From Candidatus Portnoybacteria bacterium (GTDB lineage Bacteria > Patescibacteriota > Minisyncoccia > Portnoybacterales > GWB1-42-6): DNA of 64,000 nucleotides. The DNA is taken from NCBI GenBank assembly GCA_016208745.1, contig JACQXN010000022.1:19212-83211 (forward strand), in the 5' to 3' direction. The translations under genes were made by a program, and so were the position numbers. Below, piece by piece: positions 8,746 to 56,972 of this stretch; the first letter of the stretch is position 1; each line of letters begins with the position of its first letter. Below the pieces are notes generated by a model, which was given only the letters and a program-made list of their open reading frames with translations, made no database searches and was not told the origin of the DNA.

Positions 8746-8842
8746 ATTACGTCTCCTCTGTGAGTTTTTAATGCCTGAAAATAATAAATAAAACGAACTA
8801 TCTAGCGAATTGAATTAATAATTGTATACCATAAACCAATTT

Positions 8843-10921
8843 ATGTCAACCTTCAAGCTCCGCGCACCATTTCGCCCAACAGGTGACCAGCCAGGCGCAA
8901 TAAATGCACTAGTTAAAAATTTAAAGACTGGCATTAAGCATCAGACGCTTTTGGGTGTGACAGGAAGCGGCAAAACTTTTACTATGGCCAATGTGATTGA
9001 GAAAAATCAAAAACCAACATTGGTTATTTCGCATAATAAAACTTTGGCGGCCCAGCTTTATCAGGAATTTAAAGAGTTTTTTCCGGAAAACGCCGTGCAT
9101 TTTTTCGTCTCCTATTATGACTACTACCAACCCGAAGCCTATATCCCCCAAACCGACACCTATATTGATAAAGACGTAAAAATCAACGATGAAATTGACC
9201 GCCTGCGCCACGCCGCCACGCAGGCGCTTTTAACCAGAAATGACACGATTGTTGTGGCTTCAGTTTCTTGCATTTATAATATCGGCTCGCCAGAAGAATA
9301 TCAGAATTTGAGTTTAGAGTTTAAGAAAGGCCAATTTTTGAGCCGCCAGAAATTTTTAAGGCATTTAATATCTCTGCAATACCAGCGATCGGATGTTGAT
9401 TTCAAAAGAGGCACATTTAAAGTCCGGGGCGATTTAATTGAGGTCTGGTCAGCCACTGGCGAACAAATATTAAAATTTGATTTTTTTGGCAATCAGATAG
9501 AAAAAATATCAGAAATCAATTTGCCCAATAATATTTTAAAAGCAGACAAGGAAAAAGAAGTTAAACAGGCAAGAGTTTTTCCGGCTAAATACTGGGTCGC
9601 GCCAGAGCAGAAATTGGGCTTAGCAATAAAAAATATTAAATTGGAGCTTGAAAACCAGCTGGAAAAATTAAAAAGACAGAATAAAATTCTTGACGCCGAA
9701 CGGCTTAAGCGGCGCACCAACTTTGACCTTGAAATAATCAAAGAAACCGGCTATTGTCACGGCGTTGAAAATTATTCACGGCATTTGGAATTTCGCAAAC
9801 CCGGCGAGCCGCCTTTCACCTTATTGGACTATTTTCCAAAAGACTATTTATTGATTATTGACGAATCGCACATGACTGTTCCCCAGCTTAACGGAATGTA
9901 TTTTGGCGACCGCTCGCGCAAAGAAACTTTAATTGAGTATGGCTTCCGCTTGCCTTCGGCGCTTGATAACCGACCGCTTAAATTTAATGAGTTCGAGAAA
10001 AAGGTTGATCAAGTTGTCTATACTTCGGCAACGCCCAGTAAGTACGAAATCGAGAAATCAAAGTCTGTCTGCACGAAAAAAAATCCTCCCCATCCCTCCT
10101 CCGTATCAAGTACGGGGCAAGCTCTAAAGGGAGGGAGTGATTCCCCTCCTTTAGGAGGGGCAAGGGGAGATTTTTGCATCATCCAGCAGCTCATCCGCCC
10201 CACTGGCCTGCTTGATCCGGCAATAGAAATCCGTTCAACTAAAAATCAAATTCCACATTTAATCAAGCAAATCAAAGAAACGGTCGAAAGTGGTGCCAGG
10301 GTTTTAGTAACAACAATTACCAAACGCCTCTCCGAAGACTTATCGGAATATTTGCAAGAGCAAGGAATAAAAGCCCAATATCTGCATTCTGAAATTAAAA
10401 CATTGGAACGACCGGAAATTTTGAAAGATTTAAGACTTGGCAAAATCGACGTTTTGGTTGGCATTAATCTTTTAAGAGAGGGGCTGGATTTACCAGAAGT
10501 TGGGCTGGTGGCAATTTTGGATGCTGACAAGGAAGGCTTTTTGCGCAATGACACAACGCTTATCCAAACAATGGGCCGCGCTTCTCGCCATCCGCAAGGC
10601 CGCGTTATTATGTATGCTGACAAGATTACCCAATCAATGAAACGCGCAATTTCTGAAACCAATCGCCGGCGCAAAATTCAGGAAAGCTATAATAAAAAAC
10701 ATAAAATCACGCCCCAGCCAATTAAAAAAGGCATCCGGCCAAGCATTGTAGAAATTACAAAAATGCCAAAAGGAGCGCTAAAAACTGAGAAAGAATATCT
10801 GGAAGAATACATTAAGGAGCTTGAGTTTAAAATGGAACTGGCTAATCGGAATTTGCAATTTGACGAAGCAATGAGACTGCAAGAACAAATTAATAAATTA
10901 AAAAGGGCGACGAAAAAATAA
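8843..10921 (+). CDS. uvrB: Excinuclease ABC subunit B (UvrB) with ~33 aa in-frame palindromic-element insertion
   Basis: GVTGSGKTF Walker A, helicase motifs, C-terminal UVR domain. Segment CTKKNPPHPSSVSSTGQALKGGSDSPPLGGARGDFC interrupts the conserved ELEKS...RPTGLLDP region. The track start at 8822 is TTG; the ATG at 8843 is more likely. Confidence 0.9.
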   Translation: MSTFKLRAPFRPTGDQPGAINALVKNLKTGIKHQTLLGVTGSGKTFTMANVIEKNQKPTLVISHNKTLAAQLYQEFKEFFPENAVHFFVSYYDYYQPEAYIPQTDTYIDKDVKINDEIDRLRHAATQALLTRNDTIVVASVSCIYNIGSPEEYQNLSLEFKKGQFLSRQKFLRHLISLQYQRSDVDFKRGTFKVRGDLIEVWSATGEQILKFDFFGNQIEKISEINLPNNILKADKEKEVKQARVFPAKYWVAPEQKLGLAIKNIKLELENQLEKLKRQNKILDAERLKRRTNFDLEIIKETGYCHGVENYSRHLEFRKPGEPPFTLLDYFPKDYLLIIDESHMTVPQLNGMYFGDRSRKETLIEYGFRLPSALDNRPLKFNEFEKKVDQVVYTSATPSKYEIEKSKSVCTKKNPPHPSSVSSTGQALKGGSDSPPLGGARGDFCIIQQLIRPTGLLDPAIEIRSTKNQIPHLIKQIKETVESGARVLVTTITKRLSEDLSEYLQEQGIKAQYLHSEIKTLERPEILKDLRLGKIDVLVGINLLREGLDLPEVGLVAILDADKEGFLRNDTTLIQTMGRASRHPQGRVIMYADKITQSMKRAISETNRRRKIQESYNKKHKITPQPIKKGIRPSIVEITKMPKGALKTEKEYLEEYIKELEFKMELANRNLQFDEAMRLQEQINKLKRATKK
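10081..10172. repeat. GC-rich nested-hairpin element (family A copy) in-frame in uvrB
   Basis: ~85 percent identical over 92 nt to 42961-43054, with the same outer AAATCCTCCCC/GGGGAGATTTT and two inner hairpins. Confidence 0.85.
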
Positions 10922-10929
10922 AGGGCATT

Positions 10930-11792
10930 CTTAACAAGTTGGAACAAGGAACAATGAATTCTTTAAGTATTCATGCGGGTTTTTAAAGATTTCAGGGTGG
11001 TTAAAATTTGCTTCAAATTCAGCCACGACATTTTCTAACTTGGAACCGGTAACGTGATGGTATTTTCTTCTGATAAAAGTCCTTAAATTACCAAATACTC
11101 CCTCTATCTCAGAAGTCAGCCCAAACTCCCATTTGGAATGAATGTCTCTTTGGTGAGTGACCGGCCAGGCATTCTTGATGCCCCGGTAATAGCCGGCTCC
11201 GTCCGTAAACAGCTTTGAGCCCGGCTCAACATGTCTGACAATGAATTGAGAGACGTTCTGTTTCTGAACATATTGTTTTGGGATGACTCGCAAAATTACC
11301 TTTTTGGCCAGCGTGTCTTTGGCTGCGATGACCGCTTTACCTCTAAAGAATGCTTCATCCATCTGAATCGTATCTTTTAGCGGAGAAAGCCAGTCAGGAT
11401 CAGGAATATTAAGCCTGAAGTTATCAAGCCAATTTCTAATTGTGACTTCGCTTAATTCTGTAATTTTAATTGTTTGGGTAATTGGCAAATGATTTAGCCA
11501 ACACCACAGAAGCGTGTAAAATGTTTCCCAGGGCAGCTTCATGTTGGACAGCCAGGTGTTGCTGGTTAGAGAGAAGGGTCTGCGGCATTTTTTACAGCGG
11601 TACCGATTCTCTGATTTGTAGACACTACGGCTTTTGCAACGCGGACAATGCAGATGAGTGCCAAAAAGAATACGCCTAACTATCTTTTTAATCTTAACTT
11701 CTGATGGTATTTGTTTTAAATGATACATAGGAGCAGATTTTTTAAAGATTTTCATCTTTATTGTATCATTGAATCTGTTCCAACTTCTTTAG
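10930..11792. mobile_element. IS1595-family insertion sequence (~860 bp) with 11 bp terminal inverted repeats
   Basis: AAGTTGGAACA at 10936-10946 and its exact reverse complement at 11776-11786 flank a transposase ORF. Confidence 0.65.
10931..11755 (-). CDS. IS1595-family (ISXO2-like) transposase
   Basis: N-terminal zinc ribbon CPRCKSRSVYKSENRYRCKKCRRPFS and a DDE region (IQMDEAFF...TDGAGYY); 274 aa. Confidence 0.75.
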   Translation of the reverse strand: MKIFKKSAPMYHLKQIPSEVKIKKIVRRILFGTHLHCPRCKSRSVYKSENRYRCKKCRRPFSLTSNTWLSNMKLPWETFYTLLWCWLNHLPITQTIKITELSEVTIRNWLDNFRLNIPDPDWLSPLKDTIQMDEAFFRGKAVIAAKDTLAKKVILRVIPKQYVQKQNVSQFIVRHVEPGSKLFTDGAGYYRGIKNAWPVTHQRDIHSKWEFGLTSEIEGVFGNLRTFIRRKYHHVTGSKLENVVAEFEANFNHPEIFKNPHEYLKNSLFLVPTC

Positions 11793-11863
11793 TATACCCA
11801 AATCATAATGTATGCCTAGCCGCGATGGTTTCGTGGCAAAATCACATCATTAGGGAGGCGGCA

Positions 11864-35152: not shown

Positions 35153-36523
35153 TTAAATACTATAAAATCTTTCTTTAATTAAATTAATTTCTTGTTGTAG
35201 GGATTCGTTTTTTTGTAGCTCTCTATTTAATTTTTCACAAGCATACATAACAGTTGTATGATCTCTGCCGCCTAACTTCTCACCAATAAAAGGAAAGGAG
35301 CTTTTTAATTCCTCCCTGATTAAAAACATAGCTACTTGTCTTGGCCAGACTAACTCTTTTTTACGACAACGATTAATTAGGTGGCTAGTGTTTATATCGT
35401 AAAATTCTGATACTGCCTGAAGAATAACTTTATAACTTATTTTTTTAGAAGGAGGTGAGGTAATGCCGGTTAGTATTTTTGAAATTTGCTCCAATGACGG
35501 CAGGGAGCCGCTTAATTTAAGGGTAATCATTACTCTATTTAATGCTCCTTCAAGCTCCCTGATATTTTTTTGAATATTGGCAGCGATATAATTTAACACC
35601 TCATCGCTTATTTGAAGATTTTTTTCGTAACACTTTGCTTTTAATATAGCGATTCTTGATTCTAAATCAGGATAGCTGATATCAGCGATCATTCCCCCTT
35701 CAAATCGTGATTTTAATCTTTCTTCAAGCGTTGAGATAGCTTTGGGCGGCCGATCAGAACTTATAATTATCTGTTTATTGTTTTGATATAAGGCGTTAAA
35801 GGTATGGAAGAATTCTTCCTGAGTTTTTTCTTTGCCGGATAAAAACTGAACATCATCAATAATTAAGACATCGATTTTTCGGTAACTATTCTTAAATTCC
35901 TCCATTTGCCCATTATAAAGGGCAGCGACTAGCTCATTGGTAAATTTTTCAGAACTTGTATAGCAGATTTTTTTCTCGTTTTTAAAGTTTTTAACTATTT
36001 CGTTGCCAATTGCTTGGATAAGATGGGTTTTGCCCAGCCCCACCCCGCCATAAATAAATAAGGGGTTATAGAGCCGGCCAAGGTTTTTAGTTATTGCTTG
36101 GGCAGCCGCTTGGGCCAATTCATTGAACGAACCGACAATAAAATTATCAAAAGTGTATTTTGGATTAAGGTGGGTCTCTTTGTTGATCTCAAGCTCTTGG
36201 AAAGACTGATTGACAATTTCGGTTTCTTTCCGTCTGGGAGGAGTTGATCGTCCAGGCGTTGCCAGTTCTGGCAAGGAAATCGCGGCAATGACAAATTCAA
36301 CCTCTTTTACTTCAGGTAAAATATTTCGCAGAGCTCTTAATATTAATTTATTGTATTTATTCTCCAGCCACTCTTTAGAAAAAGCATTAGGGACGCCGAC
36401 TGTCGCGGCGCCTTCTCTGGTTTTTATTACATCGGTGTTCCGAAACCAAGTAATAAAGTTTGTCTTGGAAATATTGAGTTCAATTTCCCCTAAGGCAGCT
36501 TGCCAAAGCTCGTGGTTGGTCAT
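35153..36523 (-). CDS. dnaA: Chromosomal replication initiator DnaA
   Basis: GGVGLGKTHL Walker A, AAA+ motifs, C-terminal DnaA-box-binding HTH; 456 aa. Confidence 0.92.
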   Translation of the reverse strand: MTNHELWQAALGEIELNISKTNFITWFRNTDVIKTREGAATVGVPNAFSKEWLENKYNKLILRALRNILPEVKEVEFVIAAISLPELATPGRSTPPRRKETEIVNQSFQELEINKETHLNPKYTFDNFIVGSFNELAQAAAQAITKNLGRLYNPLFIYGGVGLGKTHLIQAIGNEIVKNFKNEKKICYTSSEKFTNELVAALYNGQMEEFKNSYRKIDVLIIDDVQFLSGKEKTQEEFFHTFNALYQNNKQIIISSDRPPKAISTLEERLKSRFEGGMIADISYPDLESRIAILKAKCYEKNLQISDEVLNYIAANIQKNIRELEGALNRVMITLKLSGSLPSLEQISKILTGITSPPSKKISYKVILQAVSEFYDINTSHLINRCRKKELVWPRQVAMFLIREELKSSFPFIGEKLGGRDHTTVMYACEKLNRELQKNESLQQEINLIKERFYSI

Positions 36524-44213: not shown

Positions 44214-45026
44214 TTATGCGGACATGACGACTGAAACGTCCCAATGATTGCTTTCGTTAGTATATATGGCCCCACTTGGAGAGCGATACTGTTCTGAGCC
44301 AAAAGTGGGAGGTTCTATTTTGGTGAAATTATCTTCTATGTAAGATGTTAATATATCGCTCATCATCAAATCAACTTTATAGCCATTTTCATGGCTGTAT
44401 TGTCCTTCTGAGTGACCAGCCTCTGTGCCGCCAGTAATGTATACGCTGTTAGGGCTAATATTATGATCTTCTACAAGACTAATGACTTCATTAAGAGTTG
44501 TTTGCTTTATGCCTTCTAGTTTGACACATCCTACAGATTGGCCTTGTGCACACGCTGGTTTTACTCCGATGCCATGTGCCGTAAGCAAATCTCTTGCAGC
44601 TTGCTCTGTCATTCCGCCGCTTGGCGGAGGGGGTGGGGGAGGAGGGGTTGGTGTTGGGGCCGGCACATATTTTTCTATTGGTGCAAGATCCGGCCCGCTC
44701 AAATCAATCAGTTGATGGTTAATCGTCCACAAAATTATGTAGGCGCCAAAAAGAAGCAAAAGACCAAGCAGAGCAGATAAGATATAGTCTTTAGCTTGGG
44801 CAGTTTTGCCAACCATATATAAAAATCCGCCAAAAGCAATGGCAGCTACTGCTAGCGCGCCGGCAATGCCAAGCCCCCAGATATAAAGCGCTTTAATATA
44901 TACTCCGGGTTCGGGGTTATCGCCTTCTTTCATTCCGCCAAAGGGAAATTCAATGGCTGAAGCAACTAAGGGCACAACAAAAACAATTATTATTAAAATT
45001 AAGAAAAGCATCGCCTTTTTTTTCAT
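44214..45026 (-). CDS. Pilin-like membrane N-terminus, Pro linker and C-terminal M15/LAS-type peptidoglycan peptidase-like domain (putative T4SS cell-wall hydrolase)
   Basis: Two TM helices, PAPTPTPPPPPPPPSGG linker, SHENGYKVD (Hx6D) and ESNHWD (ExxH-like) motifs reminiscent of VanY/M15. Confidence 0.45.
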   Translation of the reverse strand: MKKKAMLFLILIIIVFVVPLVASAIEFPFGGMKEGDNPEPGVYIKALYIWGLGIAGALAVAAIAFGGFLYMVGKTAQAKDYILSALLGLLLLFGAYIILWTINHQLIDLSGPDLAPIEKYVPAPTPTPPPPPPPPSGGMTEQAARDLLTAHGIGVKPACAQGQSVGCVKLEGIKQTTLNEVISLVEDHNISPNSVYITGGTEAGHSEGQYSHENGYKVDLMMSDILTSYIEDNFTKIEPPTFGSEQYRSPSGAIYTNESNHWDVSVVMSA

Positions 45027-45811: not shown

Positions 45812-47638
45812 TTACATCAGCGGGTTTTTTTGTTGAATAGTCTCTTGCTCGGCAAATTCCTGTTTGGCTTTTTCAATTTCTAAAAGTTGCGAAGGGTCAG
45901 AGGTAATAATCTGGTCTTCGGTGTAGGAGGCGACAACTTTTATCGCCACATGCTTTAGCCCGGCAAAAAATATTCCTTCGCCAACATTGCATTCCAAAAG
46001 CAGGTATTTTTCTTGCTCGGTTAAACTAAAGGTCTGTTTGATTATATCAATGGTGGTCGGCGACTGCTTCATTAAAAGCTGTATAGAGGAATTACTGACG
46101 ATTGGTTTGCCGTATTCGGAGCTCATAAAATCAGCAATATCTTGTGTAATAGTTGTTAGGGCGGTGAAATATTTGCGGCAACGCTTGGCAATATGCGTCA
46201 TAAACGAAGCCGCATCTACGTATTTCATCATTACCCAAGCCTCGTCAACCACTAAAAGTCTTTTTTTAAGCCTTTCTGTTCGCATTAGATTCCAAATGTA
46301 GTGTAGGACAATATACATTGCCATTGGCCGCAATTCCTCTTCCATATCGCGAATGCTAAAAGTTACCAATTTATTTTTGGCTGTAATATTGGTTGGCTGG
46401 TTAAAAAAGCCAGTATAAGAGCCAGTAACGTATTTTTCCAAACGCAGGGCAATGGGTTTGCCGCCCTCCATATTCTCTAAAACGGTTTTTAAATCGCCCA
46501 AAAGCGGCGGCGTCATTTTGGAAAAATCAACATTAGGTGTGATATCGCGGGAAGCATAAGTTTCATTAAGCGCTTTATCCAAAATCGCGTCTTCTTGCGG
46601 AGTTAGGCCTCCAAGCATTATTCGAAGCAAACCAACAAGATGTATAATATTGCTTCGTAAAATATCAGCTGGCTGGTCGTCTTTTTGTAAAACAGGTAAA
46701 TCAAACGGGTTAATGTTGTTGGCGGAATTAAGCGAGATTTTAATATATGAGCCGCCGACAGTCTCGGTTAAATATTGGTATTCGTTTTCCGGGTCAATAA
46801 CGATAACATCTGTGCCAAGCATCAGCGATCTTAGAATTTCCAGTTTAACAGCATAGCTTTTGCCAGCGCCAGATTTAGCAAAAATCACGGAGTTATAATT
46901 TTCCATGCTAAATCTGTCAAAGAGCACGAGGCTGTTATTGTGCCGGTTAATGCCATAAAGAATGCCTTTGTTATCCGACAAATCAGAAGAAACAAAAGGA
47001 AAGGTGCTTGATATTGGCGAGGTATTCATTGGAACGTTAATAAAAAGCTCGTCTTTGGCCAGAGGCAGAATAGCGTTAAAACCTGCTTCTTGTTGAAATG
47101 AGGCGGGTTTGGCATAGACCAGTTTTGCCTCCAGCAGTCCCCTTATTTCATTCTCTGTTTCATCAAGCTCCTTGGCTGAGTCGCCAAAAATAGCCAGATA
47201 AAGCCCAAAGCGGAAAAATCTTTCTGTCCCCTGTTGAAGGACGTCTCTTAAGCCCTCCATATCCTGCAAAGAGGTTTCCAAGATTGGGTCTCTGGCTTTG
47301 CCTTTCTCCTGCTCTATGGAAATTTGCGATTGAACATGCCCCACTCTTTTTCTTAATTGTTTTAAGATTAAACCGGTGTCAGCCGGGTGAATAAACATCG
47401 TAATATTTTTTTCTTTATCAAGCGAAAGAATAGGCGAGAGCCAATTGGTTAAAAGATGCCTTGGGTAGGTAAAAACAAAAAGAACGCGGCAAAATTTATT
47501 GCCAATTTCAAGATGGTTGACGCTAAGCTTAATAGCGGGCGGCGCGATTAATTCAGCCAAGCCAAGCGAGGTTTGGTTTGGTTGGTTTGCGGCCGAAGGT
47601 TCGGGGGATTTTTTTCTTGAGAATAAAGAGAAGGCCAT
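45812..47638 (-). CDS. VirB4/TrbE-family T4SS ATPase, C-terminal two-thirds (separate ORF)
   Basis: Walker A AKSGAGKSY, Walker B LLVVDEAW, WLSP motif, VirB4 C-terminal pattern; 608 aa. Confidence 0.8.
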   Translation of the reverse strand: MAFSLFSRKKSPEPSAANQPNQTSLGLAELIAPPAIKLSVNHLEIGNKFCRVLFVFTYPRHLLTNWLSPILSLDKEKNITMFIHPADTGLILKQLRKRVGHVQSQISIEQEKGKARDPILETSLQDMEGLRDVLQQGTERFFRFGLYLAIFGDSAKELDETENEIRGLLEAKLVYAKPASFQQEAGFNAILPLAKDELFINVPMNTSPISSTFPFVSSDLSDNKGILYGINRHNNSLVLFDRFSMENYNSVIFAKSGAGKSYAVKLEILRSLMLGTDVIVIDPENEYQYLTETVGGSYIKISLNSANNINPFDLPVLQKDDQPADILRSNIIHLVGLLRIMLGGLTPQEDAILDKALNETYASRDITPNVDFSKMTPPLLGDLKTVLENMEGGKPIALRLEKYVTGSYTGFFNQPTNITAKNKLVTFSIRDMEEELRPMAMYIVLHYIWNLMRTERLKKRLLVVDEAWVMMKYVDAASFMTHIAKRCRKYFTALTTITQDIADFMSSEYGKPIVSNSSIQLLMKQSPTTIDIIKQTFSLTEQEKYLLLECNVGEGIFFAGLKHVAIKVVASYTEDQIITSDPSQLLEIEKAKQEFAEQETIQQKNPLM

Positions 47639-47687
47639 TAGAATAAATTAAAAAGTAAAAAAAGAATTATAAGCGTTATCCCCCTCT

Positions 47688-47773
47688 TTATAAAAGAGGG
47701 ACTAAGGGGGATTTATATTGAAGACTATTTTTAAAATCCACCCCAGCCCTCCTTTTTTAAAGGAGAGAGCAGG
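47688..47773. repeat. GC-rich hairpin element (family B copy) separating the two VirB4 ORFs
   Basis: Reverse-complement relative of the element at 56006-56090. Lies between the stop at 47777 and the ATG at 47638, which are in the same frame; the intervening 138 nt contains stops. Confidence 0.75.
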
Positions 47774-47776
47774 CCA

Positions 47777-48409
47777 TTATACATTAATAACCGGCCTTTC
47801 TCTGGCGCCGGGGTTATACATTTTATAAAGAAGCTCAACTAATTCATCGTCATTTAGGGCAACTGTTTTTAAACTGCAGGCAGAGAGTCCGGAAGATATG
47901 TATTCCATTCTTTGCCAAAGGCCGGCGCGCATCTGTTGGAAAGTTGGGAGCTTTGTTTCCCCGTTTTTTTTGCCAAACGATTTTTTCATCTTTTCAATAA
48001 GACCGGTGGCTTGTTTTTCAATGCTTTGGGTAAAGGGCACGATGACATAAAAATAAGTGCTCATAATATTAACCATTTGCGATAAATTTTTCACAAAATC
48101 AATATATTCGCTCGTTTGGATTTTTAAAAGCTCGTTTTCCTGTTCAACTCTTTTTTGTTCCAAGGTTTTTAAATAATCAGAAACATCAAATTTTCTGGTT
48201 GAGACCAGAATTTGGATTGGAAAATCAAGCGAGTTTAAAAATTCCTGATAACGATAAGTGATGGCTTCCTGCTCTTCGCTGGATTTTAAAGAGAAATTAA
48301 GAGAGCCGATCATCAAAACCCCCTTTAAAGAGCCGTCTTTCATTAAGATAGCGCCTTCTTTGATTTCAGTGACTGGGATTTTTTTTTTTTTTCTTGCGCC
48401 CTGATTCAT
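47777..48409 (-). CDS. VirB4-family ATPase N-terminal domain (separate ORF); contains A14 tract at codons 6-10
   Basis: GAILMKDGSLKGVLMIGSLNFSLKSSEEQEAI...PIQILVSTRKFDVSDYLK matches the N-domain of Gram-positive VirB4 (Tn916 Orf16/PrgJ-like). T14 on the plus strand at 48379-48392. Confidence 0.7.
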   Translation of the reverse strand: MNQGARKKKKIPVTEIKEGAILMKDGSLKGVLMIGSLNFSLKSSEEQEAITYRYQEFLNSLDFPIQILVSTRKFDVSDYLKTLEQKRVEQENELLKIQTSEYIDFVKNLSQMVNIMSTYFYVIVPFTQSIEKQATGLIEKMKKSFGKKNGETKLPTFQQMRAGLWQRMEYISSGLSACSLKTVALNDDELVELLYKMYNPGARERPVINV

Positions 48410-48432
48410 AAAGTTAATTTAAATATCAAATT

Positions 48433-48497
48433 GTCATTCCTGCGAAAGCAGGGATCCAGGTTTTATGAGTCTGGATTCCCGCTTTCGCGGGAATGAC
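48433..48497. repeat. Family C hairpin repeat (GTCATTCC-TGCGAAAGCA-GGGATCC / GGATTCCC-GCTTTCGC-GGGAATGAC)
   Basis: Internal hairpins CCTGCgaaaGCAGG and TCCCGCtttcGCGGGA with outer GTCATTCC/GGAATGAC inverted repeat. Relatives at 56371-56462 and 56878-56900. Confidence 0.65.
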
Positions 48498-48553
48498 ATA
48501 GAATGTTCTAGGGATTTTGTTGATGTCAGACGTCAGCAGATTAATTGCCTAAT

Positions 48554-53959: not shown

Positions 53960-54942
53960 TATTTAAGATTTTTTTTAAGGTTGTTTATTTCCATTGTTAT
54001 TTTTTCAGACGCCGAACCGCTTTTCTGGTATTCTTCTATGGCGATTAAGGCTTTCAGCGGATCTTCCTGAGCATTGCTTATAACCAAGAAAACATTACTG
54101 CTATGAAGCATTGTTGATAAAAGAGTCTTTTGGAATTCAGCATAAAATTTGGGCGTTGAAATGTTTTTTAATTTTTCATAGGATTCATGGAAAGTTTTTT
54201 GCGCTATTTTAACTTTTGAAAAATCACTATTTGTCATAGCCCATTCGATATCCTGGTCTGAGACCTGAATATTTTTTGAGTTTTCTTTGATAATATTTAA
54301 AACAGCAGTTAAATAGGCAATTCTGTCTTCGTTCCTATCGCTTTGGGAAATTTTTATGTCGTTATCGGTTATGCTGGGCGGCAAAACTTTTTTTAATTCC
54401 TCATTGCTTATATTTTGGAGCATTTTTTGAAATTCCGGCATATTCTCAAGCTCTTCTGCGCTATACATTTCGCCTGTGTCTGGATTTATAAGTACGCTTT
54501 TGCCTTGTTTTATGCCTCCGCCTATTCCTTTTGCAAAAATTTCGGTCCAGTTATTTGTGCTAGCTAATATTTTTTCTTTTTCGCTAAAACCAGTTTGAGC
54601 ATTACTGCCTTTTTGCATTGGGTTGTAGCCAGACGCCACTTCTTCGCCGTCCAAATATCCATCGCCATCAGAATCTTGATTATTGATATCTGTTCCGTAT
54701 TTTGCTTCTTCCCAATCTCTTAAGCCATCGTTATCAGAATCTTTAAATTTGTCTTTTATAGCCGAAGTTACAGAAGCAGTTCCTTTGCCGATTTTTTTAA
54801 AAAGATTTATAGGATTAAATTTTCCTTCGGCGTAAAAAAAACTGCCAAAAACCAATAGTAAAATTAGCAGTATCACGCCCGCTGCAAAAATACTTTTTTT
54901 TCTGTTCTCAAGCATACCCAGTATATCAACTTCCAGAGCCAA
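53959..54942 (-). CDS. Membrane-anchored protein with thrombospondin type-3-like Ca-binding repeats
   Basis: DSDNDGLRDWEE and DSDGDGYLDGEE motifs after an N-terminal TM; 327 aa. Confidence 0.5.
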   Translation of the reverse strand: MALEVDILGMLENRKKSIFAAGVILLILLLVFGSFFYAEGKFNPINLFKKIGKGTASVTSAIKDKFKDSDNDGLRDWEEAKYGTDINNQDSDGDGYLDGEEVASGYNPMQKGSNAQTGFSEKEKILASTNNWTEIFAKGIGGGIKQGKSVLINPDTGEMYSAEELENMPEFQKMLQNISNEELKKVLPPSITDNDIKISQSDRNEDRIAYLTAVLNIIKENSKNIQVSDQDIEWAMTNSDFSKVKIAQKTFHESYEKLKNISTPKFYAEFQKTLLSTMLHSSNVFLVISNAQEDPLKALIAIEEYQKSGSASEKITMEINNLKKNLK

Positions 54943-55234
54943 GCGCCGCTTTCTTGTGGCGCCTGTATTCTAAAAGTCTTAAACCTAAAAATCTACGACC
55001 CTGAGTGGTTTTCAAATAATGCTCTCGGCGCTTGGCATCTTCTTGATTAAGACAGCCTTCAAAATATATTAACTTGAACGGTAATCGGAATTTTGTAGAG
55101 AAAGATAATCCCTTATTATGTTCTTCTATTCTTTTTTTAAGATTAGCGGTATAGCCAACATAGCAATCTTTATCTTTTAGGCTCTCTAAAACATAAACCC
55201 AGAAGAACATACTGGAAGTTGTATTACTGGGCAT
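54926..55234 (-). CDS. GIY-YIG nuclease family protein
   Basis: FFWVYVLESLKDKDCYVGYTANLKKRIEEHN (GIY...YIG motif); 102 aa. Confidence 0.75.
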   Translation of the reverse strand: MPSNTTSSMFFWVYVLESLKDKDCYVGYTANLKKRIEEHNKGLSFSTKFRLPFKLIYFEGCLNQEDAKRREHYLKTTQGRRFLGLRLLEYRRHKKAALGSGS

Positions 55235-55264
55235 AGAATTTATTAACTTAATTTTAACACAGAT

Positions 55265-55796: not shown

Positions 55797-56792
55797 TTAT
55801 TGGTTATTTAAATTTAATTCCTTCGTTATCCTTGTCCAATCTTCAGCTCTCAATGTTTCTGCCCTTTGGCTTGGCGAAATACCAGCTTTTTTTAAGGCCT
55901 CTTCAACTATTTTGCGGTTAATTTTTAACCCTTTTGTTAAGTTACCGGCTAATTGTTTGCGGGGAGCAGAAAAACCGGCGCGGACGACTTTAAAAAAATC
56001 ACTTGCCCCCTCCTTTTTAAAGGAGGGCTGGGGTGGATTTTCTTTTTCTACAAAATCCCCCTTAATCCCCCTTTTATAAAGGGGGAGATGGCTTTTTGGT
56101 ATAATCTTAATTATCGCCGAATCGACTTTTGGTTGCGGCCAGAAACAGCTTTTGGAAACATAATGCAAAATTTTTGGCTGGGCGTAAAATTGCACCGAAA
56201 CCGCCAAGAGACTCATTTCGGGCGGCTCGGCACAAATTCTTTGGGCTACTTCTTTTTGTACCATTAAAATCATTTCGCTTGGCGGATTATTTGATTCCAG
56301 AAACTTTCTAATAACGGGCGAGGTTATATAGTAAGGAAGATTGGCGACGAGTTTGTAATTATATACTTTTGTCATCCCGGGCTTGAACCGGGATCCAGAC
56401 GTCGTTCCTGCGAAAGCAGGGATCTGCTCATTATCCTGGATTCCCGTTTTCACGGGAATGACAAAAAGCGAGGTAATTGGAAATTTCAAGGCATCGCCTT
56501 CTATAATCTCTGCATTTCCATAATCTCTTAGTGTCTCTTTTAAAATTTGAATCATATTTCTCCCTTTTTCAATTGCGATAACCCTTTTTGCTTTTTTGGC
56601 TAATTCTTGTGTTAGCGTGCCAAGGCCCGGTCCAATTTCCAAAATCGTGTCGGCTTTTTTTATTTGTGCGGCTTCAATAATCTTATCTAATATATTTTTG
56701 TCAATTAAAAAATTCTGACCAAGCTGTTTTAGGGGCGTGGTGCCATATTTTGATAGCAGATATTTAATTGTTTGCGCGGATAAAAGGTTCAT
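55797..56792 (-). CDS. rsmA: 16S rRNA (adenine1518/1519-N6)-dimethyltransferase RsmA/KsgA carrying two in-frame repeat-element insertions
   Basis: SAM motif ILEIGPGLGTLT, NLPYYITSP catalytic motif, PQPKVDSAII. At 331 aa it is ~50-60 aa longer than typical KsgA. Confidence 0.8.
   Translation of the reverse strand: MNLLSAQTIKYLLSKYGTTPLKQLGQNFLIDKNILDKIIEAAQIKKADTILEIGPGLGTLTQELAKKAKRVIAIEKGRNMIQILKETLRDYGNAEIIEGDALKFPITSLFVIPVKTGIQDNEQIPAFAGTTSGSRFKPGMTKVYNYKLVANLPYYITSPVIRKFLESNNPPSEMILMVQKEVAQRICAEPPEMSLLAVSVQFYAQPKILHYVSKSCFWPQPKVDSAIIKIIPKSHLPLYKRGIKGDFVEKENPPQPSFKKEGASDFFKVVRAGFSAPRKQLAGNLTKGLKINRKIVEEALKKAGISPSQRAETLRAEDWTRITKELNLNNQ
56006..56090. repeat. GC-rich hairpin element (family B copy) in-frame in rsmA
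   Basis: CCCCTCCTTTTTAAAGGAGGG..ctggggtggatttt..aaaatcccccttaatCCCCCTTTATAAAGGGGGagatgg. Encodes ...KGDFVEKENPPQPSFKKEGA... inside KsgA. Confidence 0.75.
56371..56462. repeat. Family C hairpin repeat in-frame in rsmA
   Basis: GTCATCCCGGGcttgaaCCGGGAT..CCTGCgaaaGCAGG..GGATTCCCGttttcaCGGGAATGAC. Encodes FPITSLFVIPVKTGIQDNEQIPAFAGTTSGSRFKPGMT between DALKF and KLVANLPYY. Confidence 0.75.
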
Positions 56793-56805: not shown

Positions 56806-56972
56806 TTATAAATCCAAAATCCTAAACTCTAAATAAACTCAAAATTCAAATGTTCTAAATTTAAAACTTCTGATTTTGTCATTCCGGCGAAATCCGGACT
56901 CTAGGTTCGTTTTAGATTTTGGATTTTGGTTATTGGGATTTGTTTAGAGTTTAGGATTTAGAATTTAGGGTT
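56806..56972. repeat. ~165 bp imperfect palindrome around a family C-like mini hairpin
   Basis: AAATCCTAAACTCTAAA at 56819-56835 and its exact reverse complement at 56942-56958. Second arm pair AAATCCAAAATCC/GGATTTTGGATTT. Centre is ttgtcattCCGGCgaaatCCGGa. Confidence 0.55.

Follow-up and report, generated by a model that had tools for sequence, protein, structure and literature searches.

Hairpin repeats in a Candidatus Portnoybacteria genome, one of them in-frame in rsmA, are very probably Ssn-related single-strand DNA motifs

Three hairpin-repeat sites in a stretch of 64,000 nucleotides from Candidatus Portnoybacteria, referred to here as the window, are very probably copies of the Ssn-related motif (SRM), known as NTS/dRS3 in Neisseria and as the CGTC-1 tagged REP or RPE-6 elsewhere; as far as sequence can tell, their modules appear to be selfish or non-autonomous hairpin DNA. 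What was found belongs to a family of single-strand DNA hairpin motifs that is already known and was characterised only recently; it is not an RNA element, and the initial annotation of this DNA had missed this identity. CGTC-tagged REPs were defined by Di Nocera, De Gregorio and Rocco in 2013 (PMC3733652). In their CGTC-1 type a CGTC or TGTC tag is combined with an 8-bp stem whose first bases are AT, the loop has 4 nt and the tail is CCA. Most copies of this type form inverted dimers, some lie within genes and no transposase gene is linked to them; the type equals both dRS3 of Neisseria and RPE-6 of Rickettsia conorii (PMC3733652). The dRS3 repeat is ATTCCC-N8-GGGAAT (PMC1797815), and about half of its copies are a longer, oriented motif, the NTS CGTCATTCCCGCGMAVGCGGGAATCYRG (Chenal et al., 2025, Nat Commun; PMC11893778). 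SsnA, a 94-aa single-domain GIY-YIG protein, binds the NTS solely as single-stranded DNA, with no binding of double-stranded DNA, RNA or the reverse strand, and lowers Neisseria transformation by NTS-bearing DNA (PMC11893778). The enzyme cleaves a few nucleotides upstream of the motif; loop identity is dispensable for cutting, and mutagenesis identified the GTC before the stem and the C after it as most critical for cutting and binding (PMC11893778). SRM is found within 5 kb of 71% of ssnA homologues, and the motif-ssnA-motif layout resembles a tiny insertion sequence (PMC11893778).

The family repeats as an oriented module, about 28 nt long: a (T/C)GTC tag is followed by the first half of an 8-bp stem that opens with AT, then by a loop of 4 nt, the other half of the stem and CCAG. 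The initial annotation had placed a repeat family at 48433-48497, 56371-56462 and 56878-56900, and genuine copies are present at all three sites. Together they hold six modules, assembled into an inverted dimer (copy A), a trimer (copy B) and a decayed singleton (copy C) (Table 1). The tag is TGTC in five of the six modules and CGTC in the other. All six keep the GTC before the stem and the C after it, including the decayed module C, which retains GTC, a 5-bp stem and the following C. The inner stems vary by compensated changes (TGC/GCA, CGC/GCG, CGT/ACG and CGG/CCG), the CGT/ACG stem of module B3 being compensated relative to CGC/GCG. A shared outer repeat, GTCATYCC/GGRATGAC, had also been described; its arms are real, but they are the tagged ends of outward-facing modules, and a long element bounded by an outer inverted repeat does not exist.

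Table 1. Positions of the repeat modules, the gene that hosts copy B and the nearby GIY-YIG gene, in window coordinates.
Feature	Position	Strand	Description
Copy A	48432-48498		Inverted dimer, two modules tail to tail
Module A1, TGTCATTCCTGCGAAAGCAGGGATCCAG	48432..48459	+	Tag TGTC, one G-T pair in the stem, loop GAAA, tail CCAG
Copy A spacer	48460..48470	.	11 nt, between the tails of both modules
Module A2, TGTCATTCCCGCGAAAGCGGGAATCCAG	48471..48498	-	NTS consensus with 1 mismatch (first C to T)
Copy B	56370..56462	- (coding strand, order B3-B2-B1)	93-nt in-frame rsmA insertion
Module B1, TGTCATCCCGGGCTTGAACCGGGATCCAG	56370..56398	+	7-bp stem, 7-nt loop; fits the published SRM pattern
Module B2, CGTCGTTCCTGCGAAAGCAGGGATCTGC	56400..56427	+	CGTC tag, altered tail CTG
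Module B3, TGTCATTCCCGTGAAAACGGGAATCCAG	56436..56463	-	Inner stem CGT/ACG; fits the SRM pattern
Module C, TGTCATTCCGGCGAAATCCGGACTCTAG	56877..56904	+	Decayed singleton, uvrD-rsmA spacer
rsmA	55797..56792	-	16S rRNA dimethyltransferase, 331 aa; hosts copy B and a second in-frame insertion
GIY-YIG ORF	54926..55234	-	Single domain, 102 aa (94 aa from the NCBI start); candidate Ssn-like nuclease

The modules fit the published definitions in both sequence and structure, which is the basis for assigning them to SRM/NTS/dRS3/CGTC-1. Modules A1, A2 and B3 show all four CGTC-1 features, while B1 (7-nt loop, 7-bp stem), B2 (tail CTG) and C (decayed) deviate. The exact dRS3 core was found in two modules, at 48475-48494 (A2) and 56440-56459 (B3). 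Compared with the NTS, module A2 has a single mismatch and the other modules at least three, mostly compensated stem changes. The published SRM pattern, HGTCWYN(0-2)YYVSBRHN(0-5)WNVSBRGN(0-2)RNCYNB, matched the window four times, against 0.04 matches expected from 100 dinucleotide shuffles, and three of the four matches fall in the reported sites. The fourth, TGTCATTGCCGCGATTTCCTTGCCAGAACTGG at 36262-36293 inside dnaA, forms no good hairpin and is probably a chance match of a very degenerate pattern.

Pattern counts argue against chance. GTCATYCC occurs eight times in the window against 1.9 expected, with five of the eight inside the three sites, and GTCATTCC-N10-GGRATCCAG gave three exact matches and one with 2 mismatches, where the expectation is 0.23 even at 3 mismatches allowed. 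We therefore consider negligible the probability that the repeats are a product of chance or of assembly, or are MITEs derived from the IS1595-family element of the window. The expectation for the module pattern lies far below what was observed, and the insertion in rsmA was recovered independently in assemblies of other samples. The window does encode an IS1595 DDE transposase (10931-11755, minus strand), but the 24-bp terminal repeats of its element (10923-10946 and 11776-11799) are unrelated to the modules, and the MITE idea was rejected on this ground. The sequence-specific patterns were used in place of a generic scan for GTC plus an 8-bp stem (G-T pairs and one mismatch allowed), which was dropped: its 57 matches, against 56 in shuffles, amount to chance. 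GTCATTCCGCCGCTTGGCGGAGG at 44608-44630 was considered as a seventh copy and not counted; its outer stem and tail are missing.

Further copies, which the initial annotation had proposed to seek genome-wide, were found on a wider search. Two collection scans with a 17-base pattern, its ten inner bases left free, returned at least 120 loci each. Hosts among the matches listed include Dehalococcoidia, Nitrospirota, Planctomycetes, Desulfobacterota, alpha-, beta- and gamma-proteobacteria and two Neisseria species, as well as Gemmatimonadota, Zixibacteria, Latescibacterota, Cloacimonas and Poribacteria. Candidate Phyla Radiation (CPR) hosts among these matches are six MAGs (one each of Paceibacteria, Parcubacteria, Uhrbacteria and Gracilibacteria, and two Saccharibacteria). 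Modules are arranged singly, as inverted dimers, or nested in one another. No widely recurring protein family was detected among ORFs within 1.5 kb of the modules in the 240 loci listed, the largest cluster being an ABC transporter ATPase at 7 loci. A crude estimate of the intragenic fraction was uninformative, since long open frames arise by chance in GC-rich genomes. One exact module (L194:1508-1534), in the VIPAQAGIQ frame, sits within an open frame of 584 codons. Its contig, 3.8 kb long, is from a MAG that bears the label Nanoarchaeota; either the motif occurs in an archaeon or the contig is mis-binned.

These copies also display the structural covariation that had been suggested as a check. 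Among 74 distinct modules, the inner three stem pairs, at positions unconstrained by the search pattern, are 98% paired, compared with 15-53% in controls slid along the sequence; cells changed on both sides number 39 versus 8.6 in shuffles, a count reached in 0 of 500 shuffles. The GTC upstream and the C just after the palindrome hold across 320 modules from elsewhere, and the base before GTC, itself unconstrained, is C or T in 308 of them. Loops are less uniform (GAAA in 93 of the 320 modules, GAAG in 66, GCAG in 64, GTAG in 21 and GGAG in 13).

The initial annotation had taken GNRA-like loops as a hint of RNA-level structure. The 144-nt spacer that separates prgI from the next ORF contains copy A, which sits 24 nt upstream of the start codon, the genes on either side being co-directional; the dimer can form one long hairpin that is very stable as RNA on both strands (-46.2 kcal/mol, z -10.3, and -40.9 kcal/mol; z about -10 to -11). 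Stabilisation of upstream mRNA is a known property of E. coli REPs (cited in PMC3733652), and the M2 orthologue in L241, a relative described below, keeps its pairing only via a G-T pair on the sense strand. Hairpins acting in the prgI-virB4 and uvrD-rsmA transcripts, for example as mRNA stabilisers or attenuators with GNRA tetraloops, are nevertheless very unlikely. Fold energy does not discriminate, because any palindromic DNA yields a stable RNA fold; the same dimer reaches -25.6 kcal/mol as DNA, and single modules are predicted to fold as DNA hairpins of -5 to -9 kcal/mol. Only about a third of the loops in the 320 modules fit GNRA, and copy A has no terminator-like character. Both orientations are present in every composite copy and across the family, so that transcripts carry sense and antisense forms, and copies occur inside ORFs and in many unrelated contexts over phyla. 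Rfam gave no match at the gathering score anywhere in the window, and the sole experimentally shown partner of the motif, SsnA, binds it as single-stranded DNA and leaves the RNA form unbound (PMC11893778). Orthologues of the prgI-virB4 spacer were sought in metagenomes; four loci were found, of which one (L245) is syntenic, and there the same two genes are 6 nt apart with no repeat, the site of copy A being empty.

That one copy is in-frame in rsmA, as the initial annotation had stated, held up: copy B adds 31 codons to the gene, encoding the peptide VIPVKTGIQDNEQIPAFAGTTSGSRFKPGMT. Compared with KsgA of Bacillus subtilis (7v2l), the insert falls at a short loop, with query residues 110-147 opposite residues 118-129. 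The second in-frame insert (query 233-255 versus 217-219 of 7v2l; about 56000-56085) belongs to another hairpin family. Stop codons are absent from five of the six reading frames of a module, as read from its sequence, and this goes some way to account for the tolerance of modules within genes. A loop of at least 30 residues is present at the insert site in 30 of the 107 RsmA homologues in which the loop could be delimited. Several contain module-translated peptides (VIPxKxGIQ, LDSRFRGND) at other loop positions, SRM-derived peptides thus being present in this loop in other CPR RsmA proteins, and further homologues carry different repeat families. The variety of repeat peptides in the same RsmA loop marks it as a permissive landing place.

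The three closest insert-bearing homologues (L241, L242 and L243; RsmA 59-62% identical) come from independent assemblies and keep the uvrD-rsmA synteny. In all three the insert occupies exactly the same position and has identical ends, TTTGTCATTCC ... CCCGGGATGRCA. Third codon positions beside the insert are free to differ, whereas GTCATTCC, GGAATCCAG and CTGGATCCC do not vary at all. For its inner stem, the first module has CGT/ACG in the window; the L241 stem reads CGC/GCG and that of L242 GGC/GCC, and all three are common subtypes of the family. From these sequences we read the rsmA insert as what may be one old insertion whose modules have since been either retained or exchanged as DNA, with stepwise compensation, gene conversion and re-insertion indistinguishable here; its conservation could also stem in part from protein-level selection.

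The second hairpin family of rsmA (CCCCC...GGGGG, translated PLYKRGIKGD...; 56000-56085) occurs again at 10088-10177, where it is inserted in-frame within an ORF with UvrB domains (8822-10921). In other RsmA homologues the same family, translated PPFKKGGVGG, is found at the first loop in place of SRM.

Other short hairpins are nested within the SRM module loops of the rsmA orthologues (L241:10001-11161, L242:2590-3501 and L243:195-1148), examples being 30 nt inserted into module 1 in L241 and, in L242 and L243 alike, a CCCCGTATCAAGTACGGGG hairpin within module 3. The nesting suggests that hairpin loops are themselves insertion targets. It would also suit the idea that an IS110/Piv-type recombinase uses the modules for attachment or as targets, in the way that filamentous prophages of Neisseria use dRS3; the link between dRS3 and phage is documented (PMC1797815), and five loci of a viral sample have a member of an IS110 transposase family 135-328 nt from a module. 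We hold this idea to be very improbable for the present sites. The 59 ORFs of the window include no IS110-family gene, nothing is integrated at the window copies, and the idea would account for how the motif is used, not for how it spread.

The slight chance that the modules are classical REP/REPIN elements mobilised by RAYT, an IS200/IS605-type Y1 transposase, is of the same order. The architecture is the same, with a tetranucleotide tag at the hairpin foot and inverted dimers folding as one long hairpin, and the two share a single-strand logic. The tag here is YGTC (CGTC or TGTC) and not GTAG, however, and CGTC REPs were reported without an associated transposase gene (PMC3733652). No HUH Y1 transposase is encoded among the window's 59 ORFs, and none recurs beside the modules in the 240 loci listed.

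Like CGTC-1 REPs, the window copies comprise an inverted dimer (copy A) and an intragenic in-frame copy (copy B) and have no neighbouring transposase; unlike those of the CGTC-1 survey, which covered five phyla with CPR not among them, they reside in a CPR host, and one module has a 7-nt loop. To NTS/SRM they are near-identical in sequence (one module at a single mismatch from the NTS, three fitting SRM); they likewise form oriented hairpins and belong to a family spread over many phyla. The host here is a CPR bacterium, Patescibacteria being unmentioned in the main text of PMC11893778. Copy number here is low, unlike that of the Neisseria NTS, and the large arrays of Neisseria NIMEs are absent: no array of dRS3 alternating with 50-150-bp RS elements was seen in the window, only the dimer, the trimer and the singleton. 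One copy here is inside the essential gene rsmA; in N. meningitidis, genes contain only 2% of the NTS (PMC11893778).

The rsmA insert also resembles Rickettsia palindromic elements, in that a housekeeping protein gains, in a surface loop, additional residues translated from a palindromic repeat. As in R. conorii (PMC3733652), one gene has two different inserts, and uvrB also carries an insert, of another family. Unlike RPE-1, the best-known RPE, which is longer and of unrelated sequence, the insert here is a composite of three SRM modules, and the host is a free-living or episymbiotic CPR lineage, in contrast to RPE hosts.

Two of the three sites have a single-domain GIY-YIG gene, with a 94-aa product, less than 5 kb away (copy B at 1.1 kb, copy C at 1.6 kb); copy A is 6.4 kb from it. 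It is the only such single-domain ORF in the window (Pfam E 7.6e-16), and from the NCBI start its product has Y6, Y17 and E63, an SsnA-like size and catalytic layout. About 81 kb of this genome was covered (the window plus L261 and L262), and each of the six modules found there lies within 8.5 kb around the gene. Of the 240 loci, searched with an HMM built from homologues of the L151 ORF (whose protein has 94 aa with Y6, Y17 and E64, like the meningococcal enzyme), four have an SsnA-like gene abutting a module (0-21 nt away), in one case with modules on both sides, which reproduces the published association of motif and nuclease.

Unlike the genes of Ssn systems, the gene in the window has no modules directly beside it; it also has terminal repeats of its own and falls in a separate CPR clade. 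Its protein is about 34% identical to SsnA-like proteins (hhalign probability 96.5%), and it scores 31.7 bits against these and 31.8 bits against the UPF0213 protein BH0048, which has an unrelated function. More than 700 close homologues exist at 75-84% identity, all the named ones from Patescibacteria, and no SRM was present within 5 kb in the three contexts of such homologues examined. The gene is absent from the syntenic relative L241. Terminal inverted repeats of about 20 bp (CCCAGTAATACAACTTCCAG ... CTGGAAGTTGATATACTGGG; 54917-54936 and 55212-55231) lie within its own coding sequence; they are unrelated to SRM, and both ends are conserved as DNA in homologues of three unrelated CPR contexts, where the homologues often overlap the upstream gene by 11 nt. 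The homologues are 75-84% identical although RsmA of the nearest relatives is only about 60% identical. By these features 54917-55236 looks like a mobile GIY-YIG element of about 330 bp.

On balance, a working Ssn in this genome, whether this 94-aa protein or another, is a possibility to be entertained, but the less probable case. A stronger proposal, that the 94-aa protein is a CPR-clade Ssn which recognises these hairpins and that the in-frame hairpins of rsmA are maintained or replaced through its activity rather than surviving by chance, we regard as unlikely. Were it true, the window would hold a working Ssn/SRM single-stranded DNA system in an ultra-small bacterium dependent on DNA uptake. 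If the neighbouring GIY-YIG protein is the cognate nuclease, the two would constitute a new specificity pair in a family of interest to biotechnology, with implications for the handling of incoming single-stranded DNA by CPR bacteria.

We favour an explanation in which each module would form its oriented hairpin when the DNA is single-stranded, and in which the modules here, as selfish or non-autonomous hairpin DNA, may have spread or been replaced via a single-strand-specific process. They would persist only where harmless, in intergenic spacers and permissive protein loops, and any continued action on them would hinge on a working Ssn, neighbouring or elsewhere in the genome. Current mobility is unsupported; copy number is low, and no recent presence/absence polymorphism was seen.

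As it stands, the result is mostly the correct identification of something known, and its new points are modest: the CPR host, the reuse of one RsmA loop as a landing site, a long-lived in-frame composite copy with DNA-level conservation, shared by four lineages whose RsmA is about 60% identical, and a nearby mobile GIY-YIG gene as candidate for the cognate nuclease. The range of a recently explained system, in which tiny GIY-YIG nucleases recognise hairpin motifs in single-stranded DNA, is extended to the Candidate Phyla Radiation, and SRM motifs can evidently last in-frame in an essential gene over long evolution, the stem being kept via compensated or replaced pairs. For annotation, peptides such as VIPAKAGIQ, LDSRFRGND or IPAFAGMT in CPR proteins should be taken as translated repeats and not as domains.

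Small GIY-YIG genes were encountered in other places as well. L257 (343-922) and L260 carry two further ones in tandem, L259 has one and L258 none, the locus being otherwise identical and adjoining a tRNA-like-looking sequence; the GIY-YIG genes thus show strain-level presence/absence. In the genome studied here, a second, uncalled and more divergent GIY-YIG ORF (L262:5866-6141; 57.7 bits to the CPR family HMM) lies about 3 kb left of the window, with no SRM nearby.

The window as a whole comprises a dnaA/dnaN origin region, a type IV secretion-like cluster with PrgI, a split VirB4 and TrbL/VirB6, and many short hairpin repeats of several families. The IS1595-family element, with its 24-bp terminal inverted repeats, spans 10923-11799 and bears the only transposase found. 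The VirB4-like ATPase is apparently split into a 210-aa ORF (47777-48409, no Pfam match) and a 608-aa ORF (45812-47638, CagE_TrbE_VirB plus TraG P-loop), and the 139-nt gap between the two holds other hairpin repeats (47679-47765). Just downstream of copy A, a slippage-prone run of 14 T (A on the coding strand) at 48379-48392 lies within the first codons of ORF 47777-48409 (MNQGARKKKK...).
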